From NCBI GenBank assembly GCA_050012855.1, contig JBEKGJ010000019.1, positions 837 to 64,836 of the forward strand: a DNA stretch of 64,000 bases. Reading direction: 5' to 3'. Within the stretch, counting starts at the first letter, position 1; each line of letters begins with the position of its first letter. The notes under the pieces are model-generated. The model was given only the letters and a program-made list of their open reading frames with translations. It made no database searches and was not told where the DNA came from. Shown here piece by piece: positions 16,327 to 64,000 of the stretch. A program made the position numbers and the translations under genes. The DNA is from Verrucomicrobiota bacterium (lineage in GTDB: Bacteria; Verrucomicrobiota; Verrucomicrobiia; Limisphaerales; J093).

Positions 16327-16330
<4 letters not shown>

Positions 16331-16938: not shown

Positions 16939-16941
16939 GCC

Positions 16942-18138: not shown

Positions 18139-18142
18139 AACC

Positions 18143-18957: not shown

Positions 18958-18958
18958 G

Positions 18959-22605: not shown

Positions 22606-22607
22606 CC

Positions 22608-24104
22608 ATGCTCGCTTGGACCATTTACCTCTCGTTCCTGGGCGCTGGGCTGCTGACGCTGCTGCCGCGGAACCGCGCGGCGGCGGCGCGCTGGCTGGCC
22701 TTGCTGACGGCGCTGGCCGGCCTCGCGGCGGCGGTGGCCGGCACGGTTCAATTCCCAGGGGGCGCGGGGGCAACCACCTTGATCAAGACCCGCTGGATTC
22801 CGCCGCTGCACATCCAGTATTTCCTCGCCGCTGACGGCATCAGCGTGACGCTGGTGCTGCTCACGGGCATCGCGGCGGTCGCCGGCATTCTCTTTTCCTG
22901 GAACATCGAGCATCGGGCCAAGGAGTTTTTCGCCTTCTACCTCGCGCTCATCGGCGGCGTCTATGGCGTGTTCCTGAGCTTCGATCTGTTCCTGCTGTTT
23001 GTGTTTTACGAAATCGCCATTATTCCCAAGTATTTTATCATCGCCATCTGGGGTTCGACCCGCCGCGAATACGGGGCGATGAAGCTGGCGCTGTATTCCT
23101 TTGTCGGCAGCGCCATGGTGCTGGTGGGCATGATCGCCGCCTATGTAGTCGCCGGCCACTTGACCGGCCGGTACACGTTCGATCTGACGGCGCTGGCGCA
23201 GGTGCATTTCCCGGCGGGTTTCCAGCGCTGGGCGTTTCCGCTGGTGTTTGTCGGGTTCGGCATTCTCGCGGGTCTGTGGCCGTTCCACACTTGGGCGCCC
23301 ACCGGTCATGTGGCGGCGCCGACGGCCGCTTCGATGCTGCTCGCCGGCGTGGTGATGAAACTCGGCGCCTACGGCTGTCTGCGCGTGGCGATGACGCTGT
23401 TTCCGGCCGGCGTGATGATGTGGCGGACGGAGATCGCGGCGCTGGCGGTCATCGGGATCGTTTATGGCGCGATGGTCGCCTTGGTGCAGCGGGACTTCAA
23501 GTTCGTGATTGGCTACTCGAGCGTCAGTCACATGGGCTTCGTACTGCTCGGCCTGATGACGCTCAACCAGATCGGGTTGGACGGCGCGGTGCTGCAGATG
23601 TTTTCCCACGGCATCCTCGCGGGACTGTTGTTCGCCGTGGTGGGCCGCATGGTGTATGACCGCACGCATACTCGGGATCTGGGCGAACTGGAAACGATGG
23701 GCCTGAGCCACGCGCTGCCGTTCGCGGCAGCCACTTTCGTCCTCGCCGCCCTGGCCTCGATGGGCCTGCCCGGGTTCAGCGGTTTTGTGGCCGAGTTGCA
23801 GGTGCTGATCGGCGCCTGGTCCGCCTTCCCGACGGCCGGCGTCTGCGCGGGGATCGGCATCGTGATTGGCGTCGCCTACCTGCTGCGGGCCGTCCAGCGC
23901 GCGTTCTTCGCGGAAGGCGCGGAGAAACCCGGGAAGGCCGCGGCGCCTGAGCTGCCGCCCATTTCGTGGCCGGAACGGCTGGGGGCCGGGCTGCTCCTGC
24001 TGGCTTCGCTGGTGGTCGGCTTGTATCCGCAGGTGTTACTCAACCTGATTGCGCCCAGCGTGACGTCCCTGCTCGAGACCATGCGGAAAGGAGGCGCGCT
24101 GTGA
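22608..24104 (+). CDS. nuoM: NADH-quinone oxidoreductase subunit M, copy 2
   Basis: ATG at 22608 inside track ORF 22359-24104. LFVFYEIAIIPKYFIIAIWGSTRREYGAMKLALYSFVGSAMVL, PFHTWAPTGHVAAPTAASMLLAGVMKLG. Confidence 0.85.
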   Translation: MLAWTIYLSFLGAGLLTLLPRNRAAAARWLALLTALAGLAAAVAGTVQFPGGAGATTLIKTRWIPPLHIQYFLAADGISVTLVLLTGIAAVAGILFSWNIEHRAKEFFAFYLALIGGVYGVFLSFDLFLLFVFYEIAIIPKYFIIAIWGSTRREYGAMKLALYSFVGSAMVLVGMIAAYVVAGHLTGRYTFDLTALAQVHFPAGFQRWAFPLVFVGFGILAGLWPFHTWAPTGHVAAPTAASMLLAGVVMKLGAYGCLRVAMTLFPAGVMMWRTEIAALAVIGIVYGAMVALVQRDFKFVIGYSSVSHMGFVLLGLMTLNQIGLDGAVLQMFSHGILAGLLFAVVGRMVYDRTHTRDLGELETMGLSHALPFAAATFVLAALASMGLPGFSGFVAELQVLIGAWSAFPTAGVCAGIGIVIGVAYLLRAVQRAFFAEGAEKPGKAAAPELPPISWPERLGAGLLLLASLVVGLYPQVLLNLIAPSVTSLLETMRKGGAL

Positions 24105-25609
24105 GCGGCTTCGATTATCTCGACCTGCTGAGCCTGCTGGCGCCGGAGACGATTCTGGTCGTGGCCTCCCTGGCGGTGCTGGTGGTGGATCTCGGCTTCA
24201 TGCGGGCCCAACCCCTGCCCGCGCGGTGGCTCGCCGGCGGCGTGGTCACCGGCCTCGGCGGCCTGCTCGCAATCCTCTGGCTCGTGAACGTGCAGGTGCA
24301 GGCCAACGTCGCCGAAGGCATCCTCGTCGTGGACGCGTTGACGCAACTGGTCAAGACGGTGCTGGTGGCCATGCTGCTGTTCACCGCAGCGATCTCCCTG
24401 CGCGCGACCTTCACCGAGCAGGTCGGCGAGTATTTCTGCCTCCTGACGCTGGCCACGGTCGGTATGATGTTCATGGTCAGTTCCGAGGATGTGCTGATGA
24501 TTTTCGTCGCCCTCGAACTGACCAGTCTCTCGCTCTACATCCTGACGGCCTTCAACCAGCAGAACCGGGCGCCGGCGGAGGCGGGATTGAAATACTTTCT
24601 CTTCGGCGGCATGGCGGCGGCCTTCACCCTGTTCGGTCTGAGTCTGGTTTACGGCCTTACCGAGGCAACCAATCTGCGCGACATCGCCGCGCAACTCCAC
24701 GGCAAAACCCTCGACCCGCTGTTCACCGTGGCGCTGGTCATGGTGGTGATGGGTTTCGGTTTCAAAATCGCGGCCGTGCCGTTCCATCTCTGGGCGCCGG
24801 ATGCCTACCAGGGCGCACCGACACCGTCCGCCGCGCTGATTGCCTCCGGGTCCAAAGTGGCGAGCTTCTTCGTGTTCGCCAAGGTCATGGCGTTGGGCTT
24901 CGCGGGGGCGGAAGGCAGCGGCGCCGGGCGTCAGTTCGCACCCGGCTGGGTGCCCGTGCTGGCCACCCTCTCGGTCGCTTCGATGCTGCTGGGCAACCTC
25001 GCCGCCATCGCGCAAACCAGTGTGAAACGCCTGCTCGCCTACTCGGCCATCGCCCACGCGGGCTACATGCTCCTTGGTCTGCTGGCCATGAGTGACCCGG
25101 CGCGGCGCGCCGACGGCATGGCGGCCCTCGTTTATTACGCAACCACCTACGGCTTGACCACGATCGGCGCCTTCGGAGTGGTCGGGGTGGTCGAGCGCAA
25201 CGGCGGCGAAACCCTCGAACACTTTGCGGGGCTGAGCCGCCGATCGCCGCTGGCGGCCGTCTGCCTGATGGTGTTCCTGCTGTCTCTGGCCGGCATTCCG
25301 CCGCTCGCGGGATTCTTCGGCAAATTCTATCTGTTTACGGCTGCGGCCGGGGCGGGAGCCGGGAGCCTCGGCTTGATCTGGCTGGTGATTCTCGCCATCG
25401 CCATGAGCGCCGTGTCCCTTTATTACTACCTGCAGGTTCTGAAGCGGGCCTTCGTGGCACCGCTTCCCGAGGGGGTGCCGCCGTTCGCGGCTTCGCCCAT
25501 CGAGAGCCTGGCCTTGGGCGCCCTGGCGTTGGCCGTGATCGTGCTCGGCGCGCTGCCGATGCTGCTGCTTGGCGCGTTGGTCGAGGCCGTCAAGACTGTC
25601 GGATTCTGA
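24101..25609 (+). CDS. nuoN: NADH-quinone oxidoreductase subunit N
   Basis: GTG at 24101 overlapping the nuoM2 stop (GTGA). MIFVALELTSLSLYILTAF, PFHLWAPDAYQGAPTPSAALIASGSK. Confidence 0.85.
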   Translation: MSGFDYLDLLSLLAPETILVVASLAVLVVDLGFMRAQPLPARWLAGGVVTGLGGLLAILWLVNVQVQANVAEGILVVDALTQLVKTVLVAMLLFTAAISLRATFTEQVGEYFCLLTLATVGMMFMVSSEDVLMIFVALELTSLSLYILTAFNQQNRAPAEAGLKYFLFGGMAAAFTLFGLSLVYGLTEATNLRDIAAQLHGKTLDPLFTVALVMVVMGFGFKIAAVPFHLWAPDAYQGAPTPSAALIASGSKVASFFVFAKVMALGFAGAEGSGAGRQFAPGWVPVLATLSVASMLLGNLAAIAQTSVKRLLAYSAIAHAGYMLLGLLAMSDPARRADGMAALVYYATTYGLTTIGAFGVVGVVERNGGETLEHFAGLSRRSPLAAVCLMVFLLSLAGIPPLAGFFGKFYLFTAAAGAGAGSLGLIWLVILAIAMSAVSLYYYLQVLKRAFVAPLPEGVPPFAASPIESLALGALALAVIVLGALPMLLLGALVEAVKTVGF

Positions 25610-42403: not shown

Positions 42404-43702
42404 ATGAGGGAAAAAACCGCGCCTCAGAGATTTGTGCTGGTCGTTGCGCTCATCGCGGTGGGCGTTGCCATGCCCGTGCTGTGGTACGGCGCATGCATTG
42501 GACGAGCACCCAGTATTGGGGCACCGGAGGCAAAGCGTCTGGTGAATGGGCAAAAGGCAGTGCTGGTCGACCTCGGCACGGCCTCGGAGTTGGCGGTCTA
42601 TCTCCCGAATCCAGTAAAATGGCCCTTCGAGTCCATCATGGAAACCCAGGTTCTGGATGACGTGCCTGATGAACTGCGCGGCCGGAAGCTACTGTTGGTC
42701 AGCACGGCTGGCATTCAGAGCGCACGCGCTGCGATGCACTTGCAGCGGATCGGAATTGACGCGGCGATGGTGCGCGGCGGCGCCCAGCAATACGCGTGTG
42801 CGGTGCCGGGCTGTTCCAAAGGAATGCTCCTTCGCGGCGACCGGGAGACGGATGCGGACATTCCAGCCTTCCGCGAAGCCACGCTGTATGAACAGTGGGC
42901 GCTGGTGATTTCCTTCTTTGGGATAAAGAGCGTCTATACCCTGATAACCGCGGGCATCGTGCTGATGCTATGGCGGCGACGAGAAGCGGATTTGGCAGCC
43001 ATCCGCTGGTCCATGATCTTGTTCTTTTTGGGCGAGGGCTGCTGCTTCCTGAACGTAATGTTCTTTTTCGAGGATTCCATGCTTCTGGAGCACCTACACG
43101 GTGTCGGCATGGTGCTGTCGCTCGGCTTTGCTTGCTATGGAGTTCTAGAAGGCGTTGACGCCCGGTTTGTCCACTATAGCAGTGATTTGCGTTGTGCCAT
43201 GCTGGGGCTCTGTTGCGTCTGCGACAAGCACGGCGCAACGGGATGCGCGTTGCGAAAGGTGTTTTTGTTATTGATTCCAGCCACGGCAGTCCTGGCGACC
43301 ATGCCGTTGTGCTCCCCGTTCCGGAGCATTGCGTACAATACACGGGTACTTGGCGTGCTGCACAGCTACCGGCATCCAGTCGTTCATCAATTGTATGAAC
43401 TGCGCTACCTGCCGGTGTTGGCCGTGGTCTTGCTCTGCGGATGTTTTGTGATCCTGTCGCTGATCGAGCGACGCCCGCTGCTGTATTCCAAAGTTCTGTT
43501 CTCGGCAGCACTGGGAGCGATGGGTTTCAGCTTGCTGCGGCTCATGCTGGTGGCCCCATTCAGTAACAACCAGGTGTGGTTCGCCTTCTGGGAAGAGGCG
43601 ACCGAGCTGTTATACGTCGGATTGGTTGGTGCGGTGCTGGTGTTTTTTCGGCGCGGATTGCTGGTGAACCCGCGACACAGTGAAGGAGACACGGGCGCAT
43701 GA
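42404..43702 (+). CDS. membrane protein: N-terminal anchor, Cys-less rhodanese-like domain, 7-TM Cys-rich domain (432 aa)
   Basis: The rhodanese-like segment is KAVLVDLGTASE...GRKLLLVSTAGIQSARAAMHLQRIGIDAAMVRGG, with Ser where the catalytic Cys normally sits. Seven hydrophobic helices follow, plus the loop CAMLGLCCVCDKHGATGC. Confidence 0.7.
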   Translation: MREKTAPQRFVLVVALIAVGVAMPVLWYGACIGRAPSIGAPEAKRLVNGQKAVLVDLGTASELAVYLPNPVKWPFESIMETQVLDDVPDELRGRKLLLVSTAGIQSARAAMHLQRIGIDAAMVRGGAQQYACAVPGCSKGMLLRGDRETDADIPAFREATLYEQWALVISFFGIKSVYTLITAGIVLMLWRRREADLAAIRWSMILFFLGEGCCFLNVMFFFEDSMLLEHLHGVGMVLSLGFACYGVLEGVDARFVHYSSDLRCAMLGLCCVCDKHGATGCALRKVFLLLIPATAVLATMPLCSPFRSIAYNTRVLGVLHSYRHPVVHQLYELRYLPVLAVVLLCGCFVILSLIERRPLLYSKVLFSAALGAMGFSLLRLMLVAPFSNNQVWFAFWEEATELLYVGLVGAVLVFFRRGLLVNPRHSEGDTGA

Positions 43703-45960
43703 TGTTTCCTGTACGGCTGCATTTATTTGGCCTGACCATGAGCGCGCACCAGCTCCTGGAACTGTTGGCTTACGGTCTCGGGTTTCAGTTGTATCGGTTC
43801 CTGCGGCGGCGCTGGCCACGGGGCCCCGCCATGACCCTGGAACAGACAGCCTGGGTGGTGGTCGGAGCGATCTTAGGTGCGCTGATCGGGGCCAAGATGC
43901 TGGCCTGGGTCGAATCGTTGCCGGTCTATTGGGCGCACCTCAACGACTGGAGGATTCTCATCGGAGGCAAGACCATCGTTGGGGCGTTGTTGGGGGGCTG
44001 GGCGGGGGTAACCCTGGCCAAGAGCAAGCTGGGCATCGGTCATCCCAGTGGCGATGTCTATGTGTTTCCGGTCATTCTGGGCATGTGCATCGGGCGGATC
44101 GGATGTTTCCTGGCGGGCTTGGAGGATCACACCTATGGCATCGCCACCCGGCTGCCTTGGGGTGTTGATTTTGGAGACGGGATCAGCCGCCATCCTACGC
44201 AGTTGTATGAAATTGCCTTTCTGGTGCCGCTGGCAGGCTGGTTCATGTGGCGGATCAGGACTGGACAGCAGCGGGGATGTATGTTCAGCCAGTTTCTGTT
44301 GGCGTACGTCGTTTTCCGCTTCTTCGTCGAGTTCATCAAACCCCGCTATGTCCTGCCGATGGCGCCGCTGAGCGCCATTCAACTAACCTGCCTTGCGGCA
44401 ATGGTGTACGCGGTTATTCAGTGGAACGCCAACTGTTGCGGCAACGTGGAGTCAGCCGGGAACTGCGGGGAGGTTCAGGACCCGGCGAAGTTCACATGGC
44501 TGTCGGAGGACAAGACATCGCTTCGGACAGATCGTCCGTCCGGCGAAAGCGAGTGCTACGGTTCTCAGGACGGATCGCCGCGGGTGGTCGAAAAGACCAT
44601 GAGTCTCTGCGCCCAATGCCTCCGGAGGATTGAAGCGCAGGTGGTGCTCGAGCACCGCAACGTGTATTTGCAGAAATCCTGCCCTGAACATGGCCCGCAG
44701 CGGGTCTTGATTGCAACCGACAATGCCTACTGGCAGCGCAGCCGCAACCTCTACCGTCAGGCTCCCACATCGCCCCGGCAGCGGAACACGGAGAGGCAGC
44801 ACGGCTGCCCCTGGGATTGCGGTCTCTGTCCCGATCACGAGCAGCACACCTGCCTTGCCGTCGTGGAGATTACCGAGAGATGCGATCTGGGCTGCCCAAT
44901 TTGCTATGCTGCGGCGGAAGCGGGTGGGGCACATCGGTCACTGGCGGAAATCGAGGACATGCTCGATCTCGTTGCGAACCGCGAAAGCAAGGTTGGCGTG
45001 CTGCAGATCAGCGGCGGTGAACCGGCACTGCACCCGGATTTGTTTACGATTCTCGACCGCGTGAAAGCCCGTTCGATTCGTCACCTCATGCTGAATACCA
45101 ACGGCCGCCGCATCGCCCAAGACGAGGAATTCGTCCGCCGTCTCGCCGGTTACATGCCGGGATTCGAGATCTACCTGCAATTCGATTCGTTGGTTCCGGC
45201 GACACTGCAACAGTTGCGCGGCGCTGATTTGACCGGCCTACGGCGCCAAGCCCTCAGGATGTTGAACCGCTATGATCTCGCCACGACACTGGTCGTCATG
45301 CTCGAGAAAGGCCTGAATGACCGGGAAATCGGTGGGATTCTGGATTTCGCCGCCAGTCAGCCATGCGTGCGCGGCGTCACCTTTCAGCCAATCCAGGCCG
45401 CCGGCCGTCTGGAAGGGTTTGACCCCGCCACGGACCGCCTGACGCTGACGGAAGTTCGCAGCGCGATCCTCCACCAGAGCCGCCTCTTCAGCTCGGCGGA
45501 TCTGGTTCCCGTGCCTTGTCATCCGGACGCCCTGACGGCCGGCTACGCTATCCGTCGCGGTGGGAAACTCACCCCGCTGTCGCATTGGGTTGATCCCCAG
45601 TCCCTGCTGGTCAGCCTGGGCGGCAATACGATTGCTTACGAACAGGATCCGAACCTGCGCCAGCACCTACAGTCATGCCTGCGAACCTCCCCGCAGGCGA
45701 TGGCGCGGAAACTGAAGCTGCAATGTTGTCTGCCGCTCCTCCCCGCCGCGGGCTCGCCGATCCAGTACCGAGATGTGTTCCGTGTGGTCATCATGCAATT
45801 CATGGACGCCTGGAGCATGGACCTGCGTTCCTTAAAACGCTCGTGTGTACATATTGCCAGTCCCGCGGGGCGCCTGGCACCGTTTGAAACCTATAATCTG
45901 CTGCACCGTAAGAAGACCTGGAAACCAAAACAACCCACCACGGAGGATCAATATGTCTGA
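43699..45960 (+). CDS. fusion protein: Lgt-like diacylglyceryl-transferase domain plus Tes/MJ0619-type radical SAM domain (753 aa)
   Basis: N-terminal part: IGRIGCFLAGLEDHTYG and GISRHPTQLYEIAFL, which are Lgt hallmarks. C-terminal part: CAQC...CPEHG, CPWDCGLCPDHEQHTC, and VVEITERCDLGCPICYA (CX3CX2C). Also ISGGEPALHPD. The start overlaps the upstream stop (ATGA). Confidence 0.8.
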   Translation: MMFPVRLHLFGLTMSAHQLLELLAYGLGFQLYRFLRRRWPRGPAMTLEQTAWVVVGAILGALIGAKMLAWVESLPVYWAHLNDWRILIGGKTIVGALLGGWAGVTLAKSKLGIGHPSGDVYVFPVILGMCIGRIGCFLAGLEDHTYGIATRLPWGVDFGDGISRHPTQLYEIAFLVPLAGWFMWRIRTGQQRGCMFSQFLLAYVVFRFFVEFIKPRYVLPMAPLSAIQLTCLAAMVYAVIQWNANCCGNVESAGNCGEVQDPAKFTWLSEDKTSLRTDRPSGESECYGSQDGSPRVVEKTMSLCAQCLRRIEAQVVLEHRNVYLQKSCPEHGPQRVLIATDNAYWQRSRNLYRQAPTSPRQRNTERQHGCPWDCGLCPDHEQHTCLAVVEITERCDLGCPICYAAAEAGGAHRSLAEIEDMLDLVANRESKVGVLQISGGEPALHPDLFTILDRVKARSIRHLMLNTNGRRIAQDEEFVRRLAGYMPGFEIYLQFDSLVPATLQQLRGADLTGLRRQALRMLNRYDLATTLVVMLEKGLNDREIGGILDFAASQPCVRGVTFQPIQAAGRLEGFDPATDRLTLTEVRSAILHQSRLFSSADLVPVPCHPDALTAGYAIRRGGKLTPLSHWVDPQSLLVSLGGNTIAYEQDPNLRQHLQSCLRTSPQAMARKLKLQCCLPLLPAAGSPIQYRDVFRVVIMQFMDAWSMDLRSLKRSCVHIASPAGRLAPFETYNLLHRKKTWKPKQPTTEDQYV

Positions 45961-52944: not shown

Positions 52945-53029
52945 GGGCGCGTGGTGGAATTGGCAGACACGAAGGATTTAGGTTCCTTTGGCGAAAGCCG
53001 TGCAGGTTCAAGTCCTGTCGCGCCCACCA
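52945..53029 (+). tRNA. tRNA-Leu(TAG): tRNA-Leu, anticodon TAG, with encoded CCA
   Basis: Acceptor GGGCGCG/CGCGCCC. D-arm GGAATTGGCAGAC. Anticodon stem AAGGA/TCCTT with loop TTTAGGT. Long variable arm. T-arm GCAGGTTCAAGTCCTGT. Discriminator A plus CCA. Confidence 0.9.
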
Positions 53030-53661: not shown

Positions 53662-54552
53662 GTGAAACAATTGTCCTTCGATGACCTGGCACGGCTCCCC
53701 GTGCTCCAGTTCTACGAGGCGGCGTTTCGCAAGGCGACCGGGGTGCCGCTCAAGATCGTTTCCCCGGACGAGCCCCAGCGGCGACTGAGTTTCGGTGAAG
53801 CGGAAAACGCCTTTTGCGCGCTGATCGCCAGGACGCCGGCAGGGTGCGAGGCGTGCCGGGAAACCCAGGCGCGCGCCCAACGCGGTGCGGCAAAAAGACT
53901 CGGTCCCCAGCAAGTCTTCTGCTTCGCCGGGCTGACGGACGTGGCCGTGCCGGTGTTAATTGAGGGACGGCACGTGGCGACCTTGATGAGCGGGCAGATC
54001 TTCCGTCGAGAACCGACCGAACGCGATTTCACCATGGTGCTCCACATCCTTCAAGGCGGACAGGGGGCCGATTGGGAGAAGAAAGCCCGCCAGGCCTATT
54101 TCGACACGCCCGTGGTCACTGCGGAGCGGTTTCAGGCGATCATTCAGTTGCTGAACATGTTCGCGCATTATCTGGCCGACTACGCCAGCCGCCACGTGAT
54201 TGGCAGTTCCGATGCCGAGCCTCACGCGGTGGCCACCGCCAAGCAGTTTGTCCAGGCCCATGTCGAGGAACCCATCACCCTGGAGCAGGTGGTCCAACAC
54301 GTTCACGTCAGCCGGTTTTACTTCTGCAAATTGTTCAAGAAGGCCACCGGCATGACGCTGACCGACTATGTGACTCGTGTCCGCATCGAAAAGGCCAAAT
54401 CGCTGCTCGTGGATCCCTCGCGTCGCATCTCCGAGGTGGTCTTCGCGGCGGGTTTCGGGTCCATCCCACGGTTCAACAGCGTGTTCAAACGCCTGGTCGG
54501 CATGCCGCCGACGGAATATCGGGCCACGCTGCGCTCGCAGTTGCCGGTCTGA
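53662..54552 (+). CDS. AraC-family transcriptional regulator with PocR-like N-terminal sensor domain (296 aa)
   Basis: GTG start. N-terminal part FCALIARTPAGCEACRETQ...FCFAGLTDVAVPV. C-terminal HTH parts LEQVVQHVHVSRFYFCKLFKKATGMTLTDYVTRVRIEKAK and FGSIPRFNSVFKRLVGMPPTEYR. Confidence 0.85.
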   Translation: MKQLSFDDLARLPVLQFYEAAFRKATGVPLKIVSPDEPQRRLSFGEAENAFCALIARTPAGCEACRETQARAQRGAAKRLGPQQVFCFAGLTDVAVPVLIEGRHVATLMSGQIFRREPTERDFTMVLHILQGGQGADWEKKARQAYFDTPVVTAERFQAIIQLLNMFAHYLADYASRHVIGSSDAEPHAVATAKQFVQAHVEEPITLEQVVQHVHVSRFYFCKLFKKATGMTLTDYVTRVRIEKAKSLLVDPSRRISEVVFAAGFGSIPRFNSVFKRLVGMPPTEYRATLRSQLPV

Positions 54553-54913: not shown

Positions 54914-55270
54914 ATGAATTGGCCCAGTTCAATGAAACGGCGGTGGCGGACGGGCGCCGGCCTCGCACTGATCACCGCGGCGGTCCTCGCGGTGTCCGGC
55001 GCGTTGGCGCTGAGTGCGGACGCCCCGGCGGACAACCAGGCGGAAGCGAAAGCGGCAAAAAAACCGGCGGCCAAACCCTCCAGGAAAAAACTGACCGGGC
55101 AGGAATTGTACGCGATCAACTGCAATCGCTGTCATCCCGAGCGCTACCCGACGGAGTGGAACCCGAGCCAGTGGAAGACGCTCCTGCTCCACATGCGGGT
55201 GCGGGCCAACCTCCCCGCCAAACAGGCGAAGGCAATTCTCAGGTATCTCCAGGAGGACGCGGGCAACTAG
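54914..55270 (+). CDS. periplasmic monoheme c-type cytochrome (118 aa)
   Basis: ATG at 54914 inside track ORF 54788-55270. Signal peptide ending ALALSA. Single CNRCH heme motif. Confidence 0.75.
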   Translation: MNWPSSMKRRWRTGAGLALITAAVLAVSGALALSADAPADNQAEAKAAKKPAAKPSRKKLTGQELYAINCNRCHPERYPTEWNPSQWKTLLLHMRVRANLPAKQAKAILRYLQEDAGN

Positions 55271-55288
55271 CCAATCGAGGAGTTATTC

Positions 55289-56692
55289 ATGAAAAACCAT
55301 TCTTCGATTTGCAGTGTTGTTGCCGCGGGTTGCGCACTCGGCCTCGCCTTGCCCCGCCAAGCGTGGGCCACCGTCAGTGATGACGATTTCAATGCGTTGA
55401 AAAAGATCGTCCAGCAGTTGGGCGACAAGGTCCAGAAGTTGGAGCAGGGGCACGAACAGGACCAGCAGGTCCACCAACAAGACCAGCAGAAAATCGAGCA
55501 ACTCCAACAGCAGTTGGGCGTCACGCAGCAGCTTGCCACCAACGCGGTCCAGAAAGCCGAGGCCGCCGCTCAGGTGCAACCGGTGCATCCGCTTCCGGCC
55601 GGTCCGGCCGCGACGCACAATTTCACCCTGGCCGGCGACGCCGAAGTGGTCTTCGGCCGGGTTTCGGGGCAACACAGCGCCTTCGCGTTGGCGGATTTTG
55701 CGCCCATCTTCCTGTATCGGGCCAACGACAACATCCTCTTCGAGGCTGGGTTCGACTTCATGCTGGCCAATAACGCGCCGGCCGCTTCCGGCACCGCCTA
55801 TGGGTTCGATCTCAGCTTCGCGACGATTGATTACCTGCTGAACGATTACGTGACGGTGGTGGCGGGCAACATGCTGCTGCCACTCGGGACCTACTCCGAG
55901 CGCAGTGCCGGCTGGCTCAACAAATTCCCCGACAATCCTCTGCCGCGCGGCCTGCTGCCGGGCAACGGAATCGGCGCGCAGTTGCGCGGCGCTCTGCCGG
56001 TGGGCGACCGCGGCCAGATGGTCACTTACTCGATCTACGGAGCCAATGGACCGTCTTCCGTGGATGGCACCGGCAACTCCGGCTCGCTCGACCTCGGCGG
56101 CAATGTGGGCGTCTTGTCCGGAGCCACCAGCCTGCCACGGCAGTACGGTTACGGTTTGCCAGGCACGACCTTTTCGACCCTGGGCAACTTGCACTCAGAC
56201 CCCAGCGGCGGTGGGCGGGTGGGCTGGTTTTATCCGTGGAAACCGCACTATGACTTGGAACTGGGCGTTTCGGGCCAGACCGGCGAGTGGAACGACCTGG
56301 GCAATCGCTGGTCGGCCGTCGTCGTTGACGCCACCTTGCACGTCAGCCCTTATGTCGAGGTCAAGGGCGAGTTCATCAACACCTGGGTGGACACGAGCGA
56401 TCTGGGAACGATTCGCCCGAATGGCTGGTGGGTGCAGGCCGGCTACAAGTTCTCCGGCTTGAACCTCGACCTCCCCCTCGTGAACAACGTCGAGCTGGTT
56501 GGCCGCTATGACCAGTCGAACGACGCCCTGGCGCCGAGCACCAAGACCGACCGCTACACGGCGGGCTTCATTTATTACTTTTCCAACACCCTGTTGTTCG
56601 AGGGAGATTACGAGTGGCTTAATAGTCGGGGTCCCAACGCCAATCTGTATCCGTCCAACGAACTTCTCTTCCAACTGTCCTATGGATTCTAA
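55289..56692 (+). CDS. outer-membrane porin-like beta-barrel with N-terminal coiled coil (467 aa)
   Basis: Signal peptide (LALPRQAWA). Gln-rich heptad segment. Alternating-pattern beta strands. C-terminal LLFQLSYGF ending in Phe, as in outer-membrane proteins. Confidence 0.7.
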   Translation: MKNHSSICSVVAAGCALGLALPRQAWATVSDDDFNALKKIVQQLGDKVQKLEQGHEQDQQVHQQDQQKIEQLQQQLGVTQQLATNAVQKAEAAAQVQPVHPLPAGPAATHNFTLAGDAEVVFGRVSGQHSAFALADFAPIFLYRANDNILFEAGFDFMLANNAPAASGTAYGFDLSFATIDYLLNDYVTVVAGNMLLPLGTYSERSAGWLNKFPDNPLPRGLLPGNGIGAQLRGALPVGDRGQMVTYSIYGANGPSSVDGTGNSGSLDLGGNVGVLSGATSLPRQYGYGLPGTTFSTLGNLHSDPSGGGRVGWFYPWKPHYDLELGVSGQTGEWNDLGNRWSAVVVDATLHVSPYVEVKGEFINTWVDTSDLGTIRPNGWWVQAGYKFSGLNLDLPLVNNVELVGRYDQSNDALAPSTKTDRYTAGFIYYFSNTLLFEGDYEWLNSRGPNANLYPSNELLFQLSYGF

Positions 56693-56711
56693 CCGAACCA
56701 AAACGTCAAAT

Positions 56712-57188
56712 ATGAAAACAAACAATCGTTTTGCCCTGGTCCTCCTGAGCGTGGCCGCGCTTGCCTCTTTCGGGGCGTGCGTGGCCCGTGGCGCGGATGA
56801 ACCCCTGGATGCCGAAACCAAAGCGCGGGTCGAGCGCTTTGAAAAGGGCCCCGCAACCGTTGATATCTCCAAATACCCGGACGGCATCAAAGAGAACTAC
56901 GAAACGTTCAGCGCCAAGTGCTCCCAGTGCCACAAGCTGAGCCGGCCGATTAATTCGGACTACGCGACCCCGGACGAATGGTCACGCTACATCAAGCGCA
57001 TGATGCACAAGCCCGGGTCAGGCATCAGCAACGCCGACGGCAAAAAAATCTACGAGTTCCTCGCGTATGACTCCAGTGTCCGCAAGAAGGCGATGCTGGA
57101 CGCGAAACTGGCCAAGGCCACGCCGGAAGACAAGGCGTCGAATGAGAGCAAAATCAAGGAACTCCATACCAAGTACGACGACAAGTAA
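56712..57188 (+). CDS. monoheme c-type cytochrome, possible lipoprotein (158 aa)
   Basis: ATG at 56712 inside track ORF 56499-57188. Signal peptide with a possible lipobox SFGAC. Single CSQCH motif. Confidence 0.7.
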   Translation: MKTNNRFALVLLSVAALASFGACVARGADEPLDAETKARVERFEKGPATVDISKYPDGIKENYETFSAKCSQCHKLSRPINSDYATPDEWSRYIKRMMHKPGSGISNADGKKIYEFLAYDSSVRKKAMLDAKLAKATPEDKASNESKIKELHTKYDDK

Positions 57189-57238
57189 CTCGTCCGCGCG
57201 AGCGCCCCGCCGGCAGGCTGTCAGCCGCGCGTTAGAAC

Positions 57239-59161
57239 ATGTCCTCGACCTTTCCAGTCGAACTGCCCGATGTGAAGTACTTCACACGGCAGGTCCTCTG
57301 CCGTGAGGGTTGCCCGGTCCGCACGGACTCCGGCGGTTACGTCCAGGCCATCGCGGAAGGACGTTACGAGGATGCCTACATCCTGGCTCGGACACCCAAT
57401 CCATTTGCCTCGATCTGTGGCCGCGTCTGCGCGGCGCCGTGCGAGGCCAAATGCCGCCGCGGAGCGCTGGACGCGGCGGTTTCGATTCGTGCCTTGAAGC
57501 GGTTCGTTTGCGAGAAGTTCGGTGTCGAGTCAGACCGCTTTGATCTCGGTCGCGTCTATCCGGATCTGCGGGGTCAACGCCGCGAGCGCATTGGCGGCGG
57601 GCGCAAGGTGGCGATCATCGGTGCCGGTCCAGCGGGCTTGTCGTGCGCCCACGAGCTGGCGTTGATGGGCTTTGCGCCGACGGTGTTCGAGGCGCACGAG
57701 GTGGCGGGCGGCATGCTGGTGCTCGGCGTCCCGGAATACCGGCTGCCACGTGAGATTGTCCAGGCCGAGATCGAGGCCATCGAATCGCTGGGGGTGCAGA
57801 TTCAACTCAACGCCCGGCTCGGCCGCGATTTCCTGCTGGCCGACCTGCCGCGGCAGGGTTTTGAGGCGGTCTTCCTCGGCATTGGCGCGCACAAGAGCCG
57901 CGAGTTGAGCATCGAAGGCGTCCAACTCGACGGGGTGCTGCGCGCCATCGAGTTCCTCCTCAACGTCAACCTTGGCTTCCGGGTGACGCTCGGCCGCAAG
58001 GTCGTTGTTATTGGCGGGGGCAATGTCGCCTTCGACGTGGCGCGCTCGGTTGTCCGTCAGGCCGAGAAGTTCGCCGGGATGAGCGAGGCGGAGTTGCGCG
58101 TCGCGCTGCACCAGGCCGCGGCGGCGCTGGAGGAATTGACCGCGCAGGACGCCGAGGCGCCCGACGCCGTGCGTCTCGCGCTGGACGTGGCGCGCGAGGC
58201 CATCCGCAAAGGCGTGCCCGAAGTGCACATGTATTGTCTGGAAAGCCTCGACGAAATCCCGGCCGCGCGTGAGGAAATTGAGGAGGCGGAACGGGAAGGC
58301 ATCCAGCTCCACACGCGCTACGGTCCGAAACGCATTCTCGGCCGCGACGGCAAAGTCAGCGGCATCGAATTGATCAAGGCGAGCCGCGTGTTCGACGAGA
58401 ACCGCCGCTTCAATCCGCAGTTCGCCGACGGCAGCGAGGAGACGGTCGCCTGCGACACCGTGGTGCTCGCCATCGGCCAGTCGGCGGATCTGACGTGGCT
58501 GCGGCCCGAAGACAACCTGAAGGTGACCCCGCGCGGTACGCTGCAGACCGATCCGCAAACGATGGCGACTTCGCGGCCCGACGTGTTTGCCGGCGGCGAC
58601 GTGGCGTTCGGACCCCGCATCATCATCACCGCGGTGGCCGAAGGCAAACGGGCGGCGCGAGCGATCGCGAAGCACCTCACTGGCCACGAACCGGCCGAGC
58701 CGTGCCAGGCGCGCGTGACCATCTACAACCCGTTGCAGTACCGGATGAAGCCGGATTACGAGAAGCGGGTCCGCCGTCCGCCGCCGACGCTGCCGCTGGA
58801 CCGCCGCATCGGGATCGCCGAAGTGGAATTGAGTTATCCGGAAGCCGGTGCGCAGGAGCAGGCGGTTCGCTGCCTGAAATGCCACATCGGCCCGGTGTTC
58901 AACGGCGACGAATGCATCCTCTGCGGCGGCTGTGCGGATGTTTGCCCGGAGTTTTGCCTGCGGCTGGTAGATGCCGCCAGCCTGCGCGGCGACGACCGAT
59001 TGCCGGCCGCGTTCCTGGCGCGCTACGGACGCGTGCCCGGGCGTGGCGAGCAAGGCGCGATCATCAAGGACGAGACACGCTGCATTCGCTGCGGTCTGTG
59101 TGCCGCGCGTTGTCCCACCGGCGCGATCACGATGGAGCGGGTGGAACTGGTGCCGGCGTGA
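57239..59161 (+). CDS. GltD-like FAD/NAD(P)-binding oxidoreductase fused to a 2x[4Fe-4S] ferredoxin domain (640 aa, cytoplasmic)
   Basis: N-terminal Fe-S motif CREGCPV...[19 protein letters not shown]. Dinucleotide folds [14 protein letters not shown] and [12 protein letters not shown]; also VFAGGD. C-terminal CLKCH..., [12 protein letters not shown] and [12 protein letters not shown]. No signal peptide. Confidence 0.85.
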
Positions 59162-59324
59162 ACTGCCCATCCGAAATGCCCATGTCGAAGCCAGCAACCA
59201 ATCCAACCGACGAGGCCCGCCGAACGGCGCGCGGGCTTGCGCCTGCTTCAGTCGTGAGTCGGCGGACGAGGAAACAACCTCCAGGCTGCCGGCGGGCAGC
59301 GATGGGTTTCGGATTCCGGATTGC

Positions 59325-59795
59325 ATGAACCACCTTCCTTCCACCCCCGGCGTTCCCCGCCGGAGTTTCCTCCAACTCTCGCTTGGCTGGATGGCGGCCA
59401 CCTTCGCGACCGCCGCTTCGACCGTGGCGGCCGTACGGTTTCTGGTGCCCAACGTGCTGTACGAGCCGAGCGAGCGCTTCAAGGCGGGCAAGCCGGAGGA
59501 TTACCCGGACGGCGCGGTGACCTTCCTGGAAAACGAGCAGGTCTTTCTCCTTCGCAAAGGCAACACCTTCCGCTGTCTGTCCGCGGTTTGCACGCACCTG
59601 GGCTGCACCGTTAATCGTGCCGACCACGGCTACCACTGCCCCTGCCACGGCAGTGTGTTCAACGACCAGGGCGAAGTCGAAGGCGGCCCGGCCCCGCACC
59701 CGTTGCCGTGGTTCCAGGTGACGCTCAGCAAGGACGAGCGGTTGCTGGTGGACAAAAGCAAGGTGGTTTCCTCGGACAAACCCCTGGTGGTATGA
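59325..59795 (+). CDS. Rieske [2Fe-2S] protein with Tat signal (156 aa)
   Basis: RRSFLQ twin-arginine motif. CTHLGCTV and CPCHGS cluster-binding boxes. ATG at 59325 inside track ORF 58971-59795. Confidence 0.9.
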
Positions 59796-61078
59796 ACGTG
59801 CCGCTGCCCAAACGAATCTGGCAGGCGTTCGCCCGCACGCGCGTCGGCCGCTCGATCTTCCGCGTCGGCCTGCCGGAGAGCAACCTGGAGCGGTCGCAGG
59901 CGATGGTGTCCAGCTTCCTGCTGCACGTGCAGCCGGCCAAGGTCCACCGCCATTCCCTCCGCGCCGCCTACTCGCTTGGCCTGGGGCTGATCACGCTCTA
60001 CCTGTTCCTGATCCTGATCGGCACCGGCGTGCTGCTCATGTTCTACTACGTGCCGAGCACCCAGCAGGCCTACGACGCGATGAAGGACCTCCAGTTCGTC
60101 GTCTCCGCCGGCCTGCTCATGCGCAACATGCACCGCTGGGCCGCTCACTTGATGGTGTTGTTTGTCATGCTGCACCTGTGCCGCGTCTTTTACACCGGCG
60201 CCTACAAACGGCCGCGCGAGTTCAACTGGCTCCTTGGGGTCGGTCTGTTTCTCCTGACGGTGGCGCTGAGTTTTACCGGTTACCTGCTGCCGTGGGACCA
60301 ACTCGCGTTCTGGGCCATCAAAGTCGGCACCAGCATTGCCGGTTACGCGCCCGTCATTGGCCAGAAGCTTCGGTTCCTGATGCTGGGCGGACACACGGTC
60401 GGCCAGGAGGCGCTCATCCGGTTCTACGTGCTCCACGTCATCGTGCTGCCGGGCTTGGCCGTCCTGATGATCGCCCTGCACCTCTGGCGCGTACGCAAGG
60501 ACGGCGGGTTGTCGCGCCCCGATGAGCCCGGTGACGTCGTCGAACAGATCGAACTGGGCCAGTTGCCAACCAACAAAACCTACGGCCTGATGGAGCTGGC
60601 GCGCGGCACCACGCCGCAAGTCGGCCGGGATCCGGAGGACGAAGTGTTTTCCTGGCCGCATCTGGTGTTCCGCGAGTTGCTGCTGTTCCTGCTGGTGGTG
60701 GCGGTGGTGTTGTTCCTGGCGATCTTCTGGAACGCACCGCTGGAGGAATTTGCCAACCCGATCCACCCGCCCAACCCCGCCAAGGCGCCGTGGTATTTTC
60801 TCGGCCTGCAGGAATTGGTGAGTTACTCGGCGTTCTGGGGCGGGGTGGTGGTGCCAGGGCTGCTGGTGACCGCGCTGGCGTTGCTCCCTTATCTCGACCG
60901 CCGGCGCGTCGGCATCGGCCGGTGGTTCGCCCGCGAGCGCTGGGTGGCCAACACGATCTTCACCGTCTGTCTGCTGGCGGCCATCGTCTTCACCGTCATC
61001 GGCTCGTTTTTCCGCGGCCCGAACTGGGGCTGGGTGGAGCCGTGGCAGAAACCGCCGGCGGTATCGGAGGGATCCTGA
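59792..61078 (+). CDS. cytochrome b (fused b6 plus subunit IV type, 428 aa)
   Basis: ATGA overlap with the Rieske stop. [76 protein letters not shown]-like [10 protein letters not shown]. Confidence 0.9.
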
Positions 61079-61307
61079 TGCAATCCGAAAGCCGACAGCC
61101 TGGCGATGGCGGCGGATGGTTCGTGGCACGGTTCGCCCGACCGGTTGGGCCACCGACTTTCAACCCGGCCCCCGCTGCGCCGTTCGACGCGTGGTGGATT
61201 TGGCAGCCCGCGCCACGGGGCCGGCGGCTTGACGGCCACGCCCGGTCCGGGTTTCCGATTTCGGGTTTCCTTCAGTTTTCGATTCTCGGCCTTCGGATTT
61301 GTCGCGC

Positions 61308-62696
61308 ATGAACGACTCCTCTCTCCGCAAATTCTACGGCTGGTTCACGATCCTCGGCTTGCTCGTCGGCCTGCTGGTCGTCGTCGGCTATTACAAGGAC
61401 GAGTTCCGTGAGTGGAAGGTTTACCAGGGCAGCTACGTCCAGTTCGAGGTTCGCCGCGCCACGACGCCCCAACAGAGGCGGCTGGCCGAGGCCACCCCCG
61501 TCGAAATCCGCCAGATCAATTTGTCCGAACTCCATCGTCTGGACCGTTGCACCACCTGCCATCTGGCGGTGGAAGACCCAAGCTACGGTGGCTATCCACA
61601 ACCGCTGGCCTACCATCCGCTGCACGACCAGCACCCGTTCGAGAAATTCGGCTGTACGGTCTGCCACCGCGGCCAGGGCCGCGCCACTACCGTCGCCGAT
61701 GCCCACGGCCACGTCCCGCACTGGGATGAACCGATGCTGCCGCTGCGCTACATCCAGGCTTCCTGTGGCCAGTGCCACCAGGCGGCCGACAATCCCGCCG
61801 CGCCGGACCTGGCCCGCGGCCAGCAGGTGTTCGAGGAGAACGGTTGCCGCGGCTGCCACAAACTCGCCGGCGTAGGCGGCATCATCGGGCCGGAACTGGA
61901 CAAAGTCGGCGCGCGCCGTGCGCCCGAGTGGTTCCGGAAGCACTTCCTCGCCCCCGCCACCGTTACGCCCGGCTCCGCGATGCCGCCGCAGAAGCTCTCC
62001 GAAACCAACCTCGAAGCAATCACCTTGTTCATGCTCAGCCAGACGGGCGAAGCGTTGCCCGGCTATTACGCTTCGATGAAAGTGATTCCCAGTGCCAGTG
62101 AGGGCCGGCGGCTGTTCGAGCAAAAGGGCTGCATCGCCTGTCACTCCCTCGGCGGCAACGGCGGCAAGATCGGCCCGGCCTTGGACGACGTCGGCCTGCG
62201 GCGCACGCTGGAATGGATGGTCCAGCATTTCCGCGACCCGCAGACTGTTAGTCCCGGCTCAGTCATGCCGCGGTTTGGCTTCACGGAAGCGGAGGCGCGC
62301 GCCCTCGCCGACTTCCTGTTACATCTGCGCGACGCAAAGGTGGCATTGAGCCTGCCCGCCCTGATGAGCCCGGTCGAACGCGGCCGCGCGGTCTTCCGCA
62401 AGTACGGTTGCGCCGGTTGCCACGGTCCCGACGCCAAAGGCGGCGTGCCCAATCCCAACGCCAAGACGGCCCAGCAGGTGCCCGGTCTGCTCTACGTGGC
62501 CGACGGCTACACCAAGGCCGAACTGAAGGCACGCATCCTGAACGGCCAGAAAGAAATCACCGCGCTCGACCCCAAGCGTCCGCCGCCGCCGCTTTACATG
62601 CCGGCCTGGCGGGGCACCATTAGCGACACCGAAGTGGATGATTTGATCGCCCACCTCATCAGTCTGAAACCGAAGGGCGAGGAACCCGGCTTTTAG
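61308..62696 (+). CDS. membrane-anchored hexaheme c-type cytochrome (about 462 aa)
   Basis: Six CxxCH motifs read directly (CTTCH, CTVCH, CGQCH, CRGCH, CIACH, CAGCH). N-terminal TM helix FYGWFTILGLLVGLLVVVGYY. The track ORF starts at 61299. Confidence 0.85.
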   Translation: MNDSSLRKFYGWFTILGLLVGLLVVVGYYKDEFREWKVYQGSYVQFEVRRATTPQQRRLAEATPVEIRQINLSELHRLDRCTTCHLAVEDPSYGGYPQPLAYHPLHDQHPFEKFGCTVCHRGQGRATTVADAHGHVPHWDEPMLPLRYIQASCGQCHQAADNPAAPDLARGQQVFEENGCRGCHKLAGVGGIIGPELDKVGARRAPEWFRKHFLAPATVTPGSAMPPQKLSETNLEAITLFMLSQTGEALPGYYASMKVIPSASEGRRLFEQKGCIACHSLGGNGGKIGPALDDVGLRRTLEWMVQHFRDPQTVSPGSVMPRFGFTEAEARALADFLLHLRDAKVALSLPALMSPVERGRAVFRKYGCAGCHGPDAKGGVPNPNAKTAQQVPGLLYVADGYTKAELKARILNGQKEITALDPKRPPPPLYMPAWRGTISDTEVDDLIAHLISLKPKGEEPGF

Positions 62697-63134
62697 TCCG
62701 GCACAGAAACAGAAACCGTCCGATTTCTGCGTCAGGCTCACCCCGCAACCTGCCGCCGGGCCGTGTTCCATGCGAAGCCGGAAGGGAGCCATGTGTGCCG
62801 GGCTGGCGGCAAGGAACCGCGGCATTCTCGCCATGGCGGCCCCTCTCACCTCGCTTTACCTCGCCTGCGAACCGGTTGCGAAGCCCGAGAACCGTCCGAT
62901 GGTCATCGCCGTGGCCTTCCGGTTTCTTCAACCTCGCATAACCAACGGTTGGTTCGACACGGAGCCACTTCTTGCTCGCGACATTCTTACCCGGAGTCCG
63001 CAGCCGAGATTCTGAGCCGCCTGGCATTAAACGGTTAGCGCGGAAGGCGGCCACAATCGGAGGGTTTGATTCTTACTCTGGTTTTTTCCACCCATCCTTG
63101 AGCGAAAATGGGGGGCAATCCCAATTTGAGGAAG

Positions 63135-63175
63135 TGGTGGCTGGGGGCGGAATTGAACCGCCGAACCGATACACG
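63135..63175 (-). other. tRNA 3'-half fragment (T-arm, acceptor and CCA), putative att site
   Basis: The minus strand reads ...TATCGGTTCGGCGGTTCAATTCCGCCCCCAGCCACCA, a perfect T-arm GGCGG/TTCAATT/CCGCC. No matching 5' acceptor strand, D-arm or anticodon arm lies upstream, so this is not an intact tRNA. Confidence 0.55.
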
Positions 63176-63263: not shown

Positions 63264-64000
63264 ATGGCAAGCGTTATCAAACGCCCACAGTCTGGCTACT
63301 GGTATGCGTGCTGCGCCGACCAGCAGGGGCGGCAGCTTACACGGTCCACGAAAACCTCCGACCGGCGCAAGGCGCTCCAGATCGCGATCGAGCTGGAACG
63401 CGTGGAGATGCAGAGCCTGACCACCACCCAACTCCGGAAAATCCTGAGTGACGTCTCGGAGAAGGTTAACGGGGACAATCTCTCCGTTCCCACGATCGAG
63501 GCGTACCTGAAAGACTGGTTGAAACTGATCGGGGCACGGATCAAGCCGGCCACCCTGATTCGTTACGACGGCACCGTGACGAAATTCCTTGCCCACATGG
63601 GAGCGAGGGCAAGGCAGGCCGTCACGTCCCTCACCCCCAGGATATCGAACGGTTCATGAGTGCCCGCTTGGCGGCCGGCTGCGCGCCGAAGACGACTATC
63701 GTGGACATGAAGACGCTCGGCACTGCCTTTCGCCGGGCCGAAGCCTACGGTGTCATCTTGAAGAATCCGGTGACCGCCGTGCGTCCACCCAGGGACGAAT
63801 CTTCCGAGCGCGATGGGTTCACCCAGAAAGAGGTCGAGAAGTTGCTGAAGGCCACTCCAACGGTCGAATGGCAGACCCTGATCCTCCTCGGCTATTTCTT
63901 GGGAGCGCGGCTCAGCGATTGCGTACACATGCAGTGGGAGAACGTGCTTCCCGAGAAAGGGGTCATCGCCTATGAGCAGATAAAGACCGGGAAGAAGGTA
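63264..64000 (+). pseudogene. tyrosine recombinase / phage-type integrase, frameshifted, runs off the window
   Basis: MASVIKRPQSGYWYACCADQQGRQLTRSTKTSDRRKAL...TIEAYLKDWL (SAM-like N domain). After a C5 run at 63634-63638 the reading continues in another frame: DIERFMSARLAAGCAPKTTIVDMKTLGTAFRRAE...LILLGYFLGARLSDCVHMQWENV (catalytic Arg box). Confidence 0.75.

Follow-up and report, generated by a model that had tools for sequence, protein, structure and literature searches.

The 64,000-nucleotide (nt) stretch of contig JBEKGJ010000019.1 from a Verrucomicrobiota bacterium (hereafter the window) contains, on its + strand, a set of seven genes (54914-62696) in which a cytoplasmic flavoprotein, a Rieske protein, a fused cytochrome b and a hexaheme cytochrome c are preceded by a porin and two monoheme cytochromes. 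This set is a real and conserved operon, and by sequence its four core genes are homologous to those of Kuste4569-4574 and Kustd1480-1485, the clusters that encode complexes linked to nicotinamide adenine dinucleotide (phosphate), NAD(P), in anammox bacteria. The reading that best accounts for the whole, to which we assign a probability of roughly 45%, is that the seven genes form one respiratory module built on an APWY-type Rieske/cytochrome b complex. By analogy with the anammox assemblies, the flavoprotein would very probably be a physically bound cytoplasmic subunit; the direction that we favour, in which menaquinol would be oxidised and NAD+ reduced, is a more tentative proposal with the odds slightly against it. 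The core arrangement is not new, being already known from anammox bacteria and other phyla. What sets the variant apart, at the level of the encoded sequences, is its fused cytochrome b, the lack of a CxGG motif, a CLE motif in place of YRR and the lack of an HAO-like subunit.

The initial annotation had described an operon at 57239-62696, with four open reading frames (ORFs) in the same direction, a Rieske gene overlapping that of cytochrome b by ATGA, a flavoprotein devoid of a signal peptide and a cytochrome with six CxxCH motifs. All of these are where it had placed them, on the + strand, so that its core genes were right, but the porin and cytochrome genes upstream, which begin at 54914, had been missed. 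The full order is cytS, porin, cytc2, flavoprotein, Rieske, fused cytochrome b and hexaheme cytochrome (Table 1), with gaps of 18 nt between cytS and porin, 19 nt between porin and cytc2 and 50 nt between cytc2 and the flavoprotein. The AraC/PocR gene ahead of them is the probable regulator of the operon; an AraC homologue lies near 42 of 62 related loci with adequate flank. Two intergenic gaps, 59162-59324 and 61079-61307, are unusually large, most relatives having only about 1-13 nt at these places, and hold short TTTCGGATT-like words, without a second copy in the genome at E 1e-3. A scan for promoters and terminators did no better than chance (2 promoters, 1.6 expected; 13 terminators, 12.2 expected) and does not inform on the operon ends. 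RNA contigs from four runs of one soil study, in which only 9-15% of the sequence words are present and whose contigs come from relatives, cover the genes and weakly bridge cytS-porin (55120-55397), cytc2-flavoprotein (57039-57374), the flavoprotein and the start of Rieske (58434-59321), and Rieske-cytochrome b (59258-59982); they do not tell whether there is one transcript, from which strand or at what level, and may stem from carried-over DNA.

Table 1. Genes of the operon and the regulator gene ahead of it.
Feature	Position	Strand	Basis
AraC-family regulator with PocR sensory domain	53662..54552	+	Pfam PocR and HTH_18
cytS, small exported monoheme cytochrome c, 118 residues	54914..55270	+	one CxxCH, hydrophobic N-terminus
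Porin, outer-membrane beta-barrel, ~16 strands, long N-terminal helix, no haem motif	55289..56692	+	AlphaFold, Foldseek
cytc2, exported lysine-rich monoheme cytochrome c, 158 residues	56712..57188	+	one CxxCH, signal-like N-terminus
Cytoplasmic flavin adenine dinucleotide (FAD)/NAD(P) flavoprotein, 640 residues	57239..59161	+	Pfam Fer4_20, Pyr_redox_2, two Fer4 motifs
Rieske [2Fe-2S] protein, twin-arginine motif	59325..59795	+	PF00355
Fused cytochrome b (b6 + subunit IV), 428 residues	59792..61078	+	Pfam, NCBIfam
Membrane-anchored hexaheme cytochrome c	61308..62696	+	Pfam Cytochrome_C7 and three Cytochrom_C stretches; six CxxCH

The association of the core genes is evident from the relatives of the flavoprotein, taken as the best 80 of 162 stretches and amounting to 78 loci; 66 of them bear the label of a Verrucomicrobiota lineage, 7 simply read 'bacterium' and 5 are assigned to other phyla. 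Counting loci with adequate flank, the flavoprotein is accompanied by Rieske in 75/75, by cytochrome b in 72/72 and by the hexaheme cytochrome in 67/67, the three loci outside the Rieske count being stretches that stop at most 114 nt from the flavoprotein match. The accessory genes are less constant, with cytc2 in 66 of 71 loci, porin in 52 of 67 and cytS in 51 of 67. The flavoprotein-Rieske gap is at most 25 nt in 50 of the 60 loci where it could be measured, and the 163 nt found here are unusual. Indeed, the close flavoprotein was never seen without its Rieske/cytochrome b, and a lack of synteny in relatives, which the initial annotation had named as speaking against its reading, is not borne out. 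The distribution is patchy: the operon occurs in 2 of 32 family members and 4 of 60 relatives, and among 300 genomes of the phylum the close form is present in 3 and a more distant flavoprotein-linked form, detected via cytochrome b, in 5 further ones. The latter five (L210-L214) have a flavoprotein-Rieske-cytochrome b-heptaheme operon, followed in L210 by genes that by eye resemble a cbb3-type oxidase. The GC content of the operon genes, overall and at third codon positions, is close to that of nuo and acrB, so that composition gives no sign of a recent foreign origin, patchy though the distribution is.

The relation to anammox complexes was analysed using loci L123 and L122 of genome G020 as stand-ins for Kuste4569-4574 and Kustd1480-1485, respectively, as their Rieske sequences are identical and their residue numbers match those of PMC12954380. 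Every anammox core protein has the operon counterpart as its best match in this genome. The flavoprotein is, over its full length, 34% identical to Kuste4570 (E 7e-88) and 35% to Kustd1483 (E 1e-100); the corresponding values for the Kuste and Kustd proteins are 45% and 49% for cytochrome b and 39% and 36% for Rieske, and the multihaem cytochrome is 32% identical to Kustd1485 over 328 residues. The closest solved structures of the Rieske protein are 9rk4 (Kuste4569, E 5.5e-23) and 9rk3 (Kustd1480). Residues that are kept comprise K87 (the buried lysine at the FAD-proximal cluster), H45 (H43 of Kuste4571), R624 (R550 of Kustd1483) and an RVRKD motif. The likeness to anammox clusters with an NAD(P) oxidoreductase, which the initial annotation had pointed out, thus extends to homology of all four core genes, and the non-anammox nature of the genome is supported by 0 matches to the HAO family against 13 in the control genome G020. 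That the pairing is surprising can no longer be maintained, since section 9 of PMC5600118 already reports many further instances of such oxidoreductase genes adjoining those of subfamily G cytochromes b, and since the flavoprotein is present at 36 of 53 informative cytochrome b loci (see below).

The flavoprotein has an N-terminus that is not hydrophobic, with no RR pair within residues 1-40, and two Rossmann glycine motifs (GAGPAG at 128, GGGNVA at 259). Its predicted structure has a confidence (predicted local distance difference test, pLDDT) of 86, and the closest PDB entries are the large subunits of NfnABC/StnABC (8oh5, 9bov, 9n5u). A GltD-type Fe-S motif had been reported and is present, but in a permuted form: the protein has no CxxC at its N-terminus, and C545xxC548 is matched to the late motif of NfnA (9bov) in the alignment. 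Because this late motif replaces the missing one, four Fe-S clusters are expected; the ligands were assigned partly after PMC12954380 and partly by what we take to be the GltD numbering. Judged from the alignment, the CxxCH at position 545 is an Fe-S motif and not a haem site. Lys87 and Arg624 are each conserved in 72/72 aligned relatives, motif counts being made here and below on intact ORFs of L001-L078, with frameshifted or cut ORFs excluded. At the NAD(P) site, CLE is found in 74/74 relatives where the anammox protein has YRR, both motifs occurring among anammox-type orthologues, and the domain contains a helical segment of 48 residues, modelled with low confidence, where anammox proteins have 6-7 residues. 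In this family two arginines of YRR bind the 2'-phosphate of NADPH; since these are gone where CLE stands for YRR, the flavoprotein likely uses NAD in preference to NADP. In L110 (2900-7053) a single Rieske/cytochrome b operon has tandem flavoprotein genes, one with YRR and one with CLE, possibly NADP and NAD versions side by side.

In a quick IQ-TREE reconstruction of 65 flavoprotein cores (one gene entered twice), the operon protein falls inside a node of support 100. Of the 49 rows of this node, 43, Kuste4570 among them, have a link to Rieske/cytochrome b and 6 are unlinked anammox proteins; Kustd1483 is just outside and the four paralogues of this genome are far off. The genome's own GltD and NfnB-like genes sit elsewhere and outside the flavoprotein clade, so the possibility raised earlier, that the protein groups with ordinary soluble enzymes, does not hold. 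Nor did the tree recover one pure clade of Rieske/cytochrome b-linked flavoproteins, given the six nested proteins and the position of Kustd1483. An ordinary GltD can be discarded as well: the NCBIfam models remain below every cut-off (TIGR01318, 235/483 bits; TIGR01317, 204/448 bits), the motif is permuted and the neighbours are Rieske and cytochrome b, not gltB. In anammox-type genomes (L082, L085; also L083, L084, L086, L117) the flavoprotein has a 690-residue relative, which bears a FlpD domain at its C-terminus.

The Rieske protein bears an N-terminal RRSFL sequence, which we take to be its twin-arginine motif. Its S-x-F redox signature is found in 71 of 72 relatives, and the pattern is identical in Kustd1480, for which a potential of +335 mV is reported, the anammox values being +303 and +335 mV (PMC12954380). 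S-F and S-Y signatures correspond to mid-positive to high potentials (PMC4122944), and the present sequence fits this class. Cytochrome b has 7 hydrophobic segments, the four haem-b histidines, an APWY Qo motif (65/65 aligned) and His45 (69/69 close relatives). The CxGG motif of haem cN is absent (LGLGL against WCMGG in anammox), a loss that had gone unnoticed in the initial annotation; the cysteine is missing in 69/69 close relatives and in 62 of 69 the second histidine of LHLHP is a glutamine. The inner quinone-reducing side thus looks altered, and the low-potential chain may have to rely on a different sink. When 47 cytochromes b are placed in a tree, which holds no reference bc1 or b6f rows, the 42 flavoprotein-linked sequences form one side with support of 99 against 5 PEWY/PDWY-type outgroups, and by sequence the protein belongs to the APWY clade, or subfamily G type. 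His45 was considered as a marker of flavoprotein-bearing complexes and dismissed: all 20 flavoprotein-less members of the clade carry it too in one tally, which makes it a marker of the clade only.

As the synteny counts above were selected on the flavoprotein, we also seeded a scan of metagenomes with the cytochrome b alignment, retaining the best 80 of at least 598 matches. Among the 53 loci with at least 1.5 kb upstream (27 short-flank loci were excluded), the flavoprotein is present in 36 and missing in 17; therefore, the cytochrome b clade occurs both with and without it. The flavoprotein stands beside 34 of 45 CxGG-less cytochromes b against 2 of 8 CxGG-bearing ones, kin not being independent in this count, and likewise beside 18 of 21 against 1 of 3, again with non-independent kin, when both flanks reach at least 2.5 kb. 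Other arrangements were observed along the way: a paralogous operon with a 10-haem cytochrome in L101 and L129 (G282:C3) runs into a Tat-exported molybdopterin enzyme, the G282 genome having three APWY-clade cytochromes b; L048 (1860-7973) has a pentaheme/molybdopterin/NrfD-type block inserted between cytc2 and the flavoprotein; and L069, L071 and L127 have an NrfD-type block upstream in the porin's stead (PF03916 checked for L071).

Towards the outer end of the operon, the hexaheme cytochrome has one N-terminal transmembrane segment and CxxCH motifs at 81, 116, 153, 180, 275 and 368, arranged as three N-terminal haems and three class I domains, with six haems in 62/62 full-length relatives. 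In cytS, His93 and Met94 are conserved in at least 98% of 52 sequences; cytc2, which also occurs in the Cyc2-type operons L131, L145, L151 and L155, is a probable periplasmic carrier. The porin model (pLDDT 77) is a barrel of about 16 strands, closest by Foldseek to OprO (4rjw) and OprP (2o4v) with E ~1e-13, the Pfam match to Porin_O_P being weak, and no CxxCH is present in any of 62 porin ORFs. Protein Atlas clusters without names led on to Porin_O_P and to weak hints of cytochrome c. The 57 close loci with both flanks divide into 43 with the upstream porin, 10 with a downstream Cyc2-like gene and 4 with neither, and none has both; the ten, mostly labelled Opitutaceae, may represent a single event. 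PSFARQ...CxxCH is carried by 11 downstream Cyc2-like genes in other loci. The pattern returns in more distant lineages: in the cytochrome b-seeded set, where flanks are limited, 5 porins and 5 Cyc2-like genes occur among the 36 flavoprotein-bearing loci, never together, and neither was found in the 17 flavoprotein-less loci, within equally limited flanks. A cytS homologue adjoins 12/12 distant porins, 8 of them without link to any cytochrome b, and because of this constancy the porin and cytS appear to be a mobile two-gene unit standing in Cyc2's place. We infer that this unit carries electrons, a role for which the chances seem even. Stand-alone cassettes of porin and cytS without cytochrome b are seen in L222-L229, with a second monoheme cytochrome in 6 of 8, and in L223 the cassette lies ahead of MtrA/B-like genes.

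The host has futalosine menaquinone genes, three genes of the haem-copper oxidase family and two further cytochrome b genes; RuBisCO and acetyl-CoA synthase were not found in the genome, which is 94% complete. The initial annotation had linked the operon to a complex I lacking its N-module. The window's nuo cluster (13791-25609) does match NuoB, C, D, I, H, J, K, L, M, M and N, with no match to NuoE, F or G among the 40 ORFs scanned, which are not every ORF; on contig C26, however, NuoF lies some 2 kb from NuoD and, by eye, a NuoG-like ORF is alongside. The genome thus also carries a complete, NuoF-bearing second complex I, which weakens the hint. That the flavoprotein might be the missing N-module finds no support either, as the nuo cluster is more than 30 kb off and the genome has four NuoF-family genes.

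In the mechanism that we propose, the C-terminal ferredoxin domain of the flavoprotein would dock beneath the cytochrome b dimer, and a chain of four Fe-S clusters would connect the low-potential b haems with FAD and NAD(H). Menaquinol would be oxidised at the periplasmic site, its first electron passing via Rieske and the hexaheme cytochrome to the periplasmic monoheme cytochromes, and from these to a high-potential sink, either an oxidase or the outer-membrane porin-cytochrome unit; the second electron would go via the b haems and the flavoprotein to NAD+, and not back to quinone. In an apparently heterotrophic host, complex I would then re-oxidise the NADH, with extra proton pumping per electron delivered. 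This follows the bifurcation model for anammox, in which quinol gives one electron to Rieske and another, of low potential, by way of the b haems to NAD+; AlphaFold3 models of those complexes contain an Fe-S path to FAD, and their subunits are reported to co-migrate (PMC12954380, citing de Almeida 2016 for the latter). The altered inner side of cytochrome b and the high-potential Rieske signature would fit such a model. The most extended version, a full wire from NAD(H) to the cell surface in which a haem-cN-free bifurcating complex would return electrons to complex I as NADH made from menaquinol, and its high-potential branch would exit by a so far unrecognised two-gene equivalent of Cyc2 (barrel and monoheme cytochrome), we consider unlikely.

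Several observations weigh against bifurcation towards NAD+, and some of them favour its main rival. With potentials of -70 mV for menaquinone and -320 mV for NAD (PMC12954380), the energetics are marginal, as we estimate that an acceptor above about +330 mV is needed at an assumed proton-motive force of 150 mV. The reaction would thus run near equilibrium and depend on oxygen or a sink of similar strength; humic or neutral Fe(III) acceptors would mostly fall short of this value. The residues R294-E295, presumably equivalent to the Lys-Asp pair of the bc1 Qi site, are retained (E in 64 of 66), and a working inner quinone site may thus persist. Haem cN can also be lost where no flavoprotein is nearby, since 11 of the 17 cytochrome b loci of that kind are CxGG-less too; anammox complexes, conversely, have CxGG and flavoprotein together. 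His45, being unspecific, lends no help, and the anammox FlpD-type clade nested among the linked flavoproteins adjoins MTHFR genes (2 of 6 loci checked). Moreover, as neither RuBisCO nor acetyl-CoA synthase was found, there is no obvious need for extra NADH, and GltD-like modules normally pass NAD(P)H electrons on to a partner (PMC8097209). The last two points, together with R294-E295, are also what one would expect if the flavoprotein were an NADH dehydrogenase that supplies the b haems and an inner quinone site, much as FNR does at cytochrome b6f, and the operon thereby a one-operon NADH:cytochrome c oxidoreductase dumping surplus NADH to periplasmic or extracellular acceptors. Such a flow would be compatible with low-potential outside acceptors, and 53 of 57 close loci have an outer-membrane gene. 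Yet it would forgo the proton pumping of complex I, encoded twice in the genome, an argument made likewise for anammox in PMC12954380, and the loss of Glu295 in 11 flavoprotein-linked loci, which have RRx instead, suggests that the inner site is dispensable in some. On balance we hold NADH input to be doubtful, though still the foremost alternative.

Less likely than NADH input are two further explanations. The surface unit might oxidise Fe(II) or reduced humic quinones, the complex running reversed or near equilibrium and delivering electrons to the quinone/NAD pool, as could be suspected from the Cyc2-like gene in the porin pair's place at 10 of 57 close loci, from the iron-oxidase activity of Cyc2 in other clusters (bioRxiv 10.1101/228056) and from the link of APWY to reverse operation that PMC4122944 draws without biochemistry. 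A reversed periplasmic site, however, would use one low-potential electron per outside electron and discharge the gradient, so that NAD+ reduction would not result; the host shows neither a Cyc2 motif nor any carbon-fixation marker that we could find, and divergent Cyc2 homologues are of uncertain function (10.1101/228056). We thus regard electron uptake as improbable. Much the same holds for a flavoprotein that is not bound at all but is a co-regulated soluble ferredoxin/NAD(P) oxidoreductase next to an ordinary Q-cycle, with the porin as a small-anion channel. Its absence from 17 of 53 cytochrome b loci, the OprO/OprP-like porin fold and the Geobacter ext cluster would agree with this, the latter joining a similar porin, ExtI, proposed as a channel for a small anionic substrate, to Rieske/cytochrome b with no flavoprotein among the listed genes (PMC5877670); our cytochrome b scores 263.5 bits on ExtP, under the cut-off of 290. 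Against it stand the Rieske gene behind 75/75 close flavoproteins, mostly 1-3 nt off or overlapping, the reported co-migration of the anammox homologues (PMC12954380) and the haem protein that always accompanies the porin (12/12).

Quinol bifurcation to NAD+ or NADP+ by a Rieske/cytochrome b complex is a standing proposal from anammox research, and the present variant is free of the haem that complicates the anammox scheme. With a fused cytochrome b, no haem cN and no HAO subunit it is simpler, which should make it easier to express, to study by cryo-EM and to assay. As loci have either Cyc2 or the porin with its cytochrome, the latter pair emerges as a new candidate for an outer-membrane conduit of soil bacteria; if the wire were real, Cyc2 and the porin-cytS pair would be interchangeable in the operon, and surveys of soil and peat bacteria that look for extracellular electron transfer by motif would therefore miss half of the system. 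No description of the Verrucomicrobiota form or of the porin-cytS pair was found among literature titles and abstract openings, a search with few subscription journals.

As to its surroundings, the operon lies between tRNA-Leu(TAG) (52945-53029) and a minus-strand 3' fragment of a tRNA (63126-63164). The fragment has a 30-nt copy on C7, an RNA contig extends it as a tRNA read as Phe, and ARAGORN lists no tRNA-Phe in the genome; the site looks like an integration scar. Beyond it, 63264-64000 holds two short overlapping ORFs, with GC down to 56.5% and no Pfam match for the first piece, which we presume from their appearance to be pieces of a tyrosine integrase. From the orientation of the tRNA fragment, the operon would be outside the integrase element. 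Elsewhere in the window, a 753-residue ORF (43699-45960) combines a prolipoprotein diacylglyceryl transferase-like N-terminus with a TrsS/Tes-type radical SAM domain, all below cut-off. At 73000-92000 of G000 C3 there are at least 7 multihaem cytochromes and, by eye, a large beta-barrel-like ORF and an NrfD-like ORF, a second candidate locus for extracellular electron transfer.

Comparison with known systems places the operon nearest to the anammox complexes, like which it would work by analogy, although it lacks two of their structural features. The gene set of Rieske, cytochrome b, multihaem c and FAD/Fe-S oxidoreductase is found in one cluster, and the four cluster sites with the FAD-proximal lysine are present (K87, cysteines conserved). 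The covalent haem cN is missing, and in place of a split four-helix cytochrome b and five-helix subunit IV there is a 428-residue fusion with 7 segments, against 5 per anammox subunit IV; the interface haem-b histidine is kept but is not diagnostic. With Kustd1480-1485 of Kuenenia stuttgartiensis the operon shares a subunit IV part of 37% identity with APWY, the interface histidine and the buried lysine. There, however, b6 and subunit IV are split with 5 C-terminal helices (here fused, 3), CxGG and YRR are present and the haems number 8, whereas here we find no CxGG, CLE with the 48-residue segment and 6 haems; in addition, the flavoprotein gene is here ahead of Rieske, and the porin and two monoheme cytochromes are extra. 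Kuste4569-4574 resembles the operon in its hexaheme partner and in the common flavoprotein node of support 100, but the hexaheme aligns over 106 residues only, in the operon Arg511 is not kept (G564) and the haem-cN motif is lost, and the HAO-like octaheme of the Kuste cluster has no counterpart in the operon or the genome.

Subfamily G of PMC5600118 and the APWY clade of PMC4122944 share with the operon the APWY motif, a long CxGG-less cytochrome b and a close oxidoreductase gene. A long cytochrome b correlates with missing CxGG in subfamily G (PMC5600118), but the relevant passages of that paper link the oxidoreductase to short cytochromes b and name no Verrucomicrobiota and no porin. Like GltD, NfnB (SudA) and NfnA-StnC, the flavoprotein joins a core for FAD and NAD(P) to an Fe-S domain, and it differs from them in its permuted first cluster, a lysine for glutamate and the C-terminal ferredoxin. 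The Geobacter cluster extHIJKLMNOPQS likewise brings together a phosphate-porin-like barrel, c cytochromes, Rieske and cytochrome b, and differs in its split cytochrome b, rhodanese, 10-12-haem cytochromes and the lack of a flavoprotein among the listed genes (PMC5877670); besides ExtP, the models ExtQ (78.4/150 bits) and ExtS (69.9/100 bits) remain below cut-off, and that of ExtI does not match the porin. Finally, Cyc2 is also a 16-strand OprO/OprP-like barrel tied to one c haem, OprO and OprP having been cited as templates for its barrel (bioRxiv 10.1101/228056). Profile comparison of the operon porin with Cyc2-like barrels gave a homology probability of 0.9%, both profiles being shallow, and the AxPxFAR[QK] motif is absent among the host genome's ORFs. 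A split Cyc2 homologue is thereby ruled out at sequence level: the two have the fold class alone in common, and in the operon, unlike in Cyc2, the haem is encoded on a separate gene and the PxFAR motif is absent.

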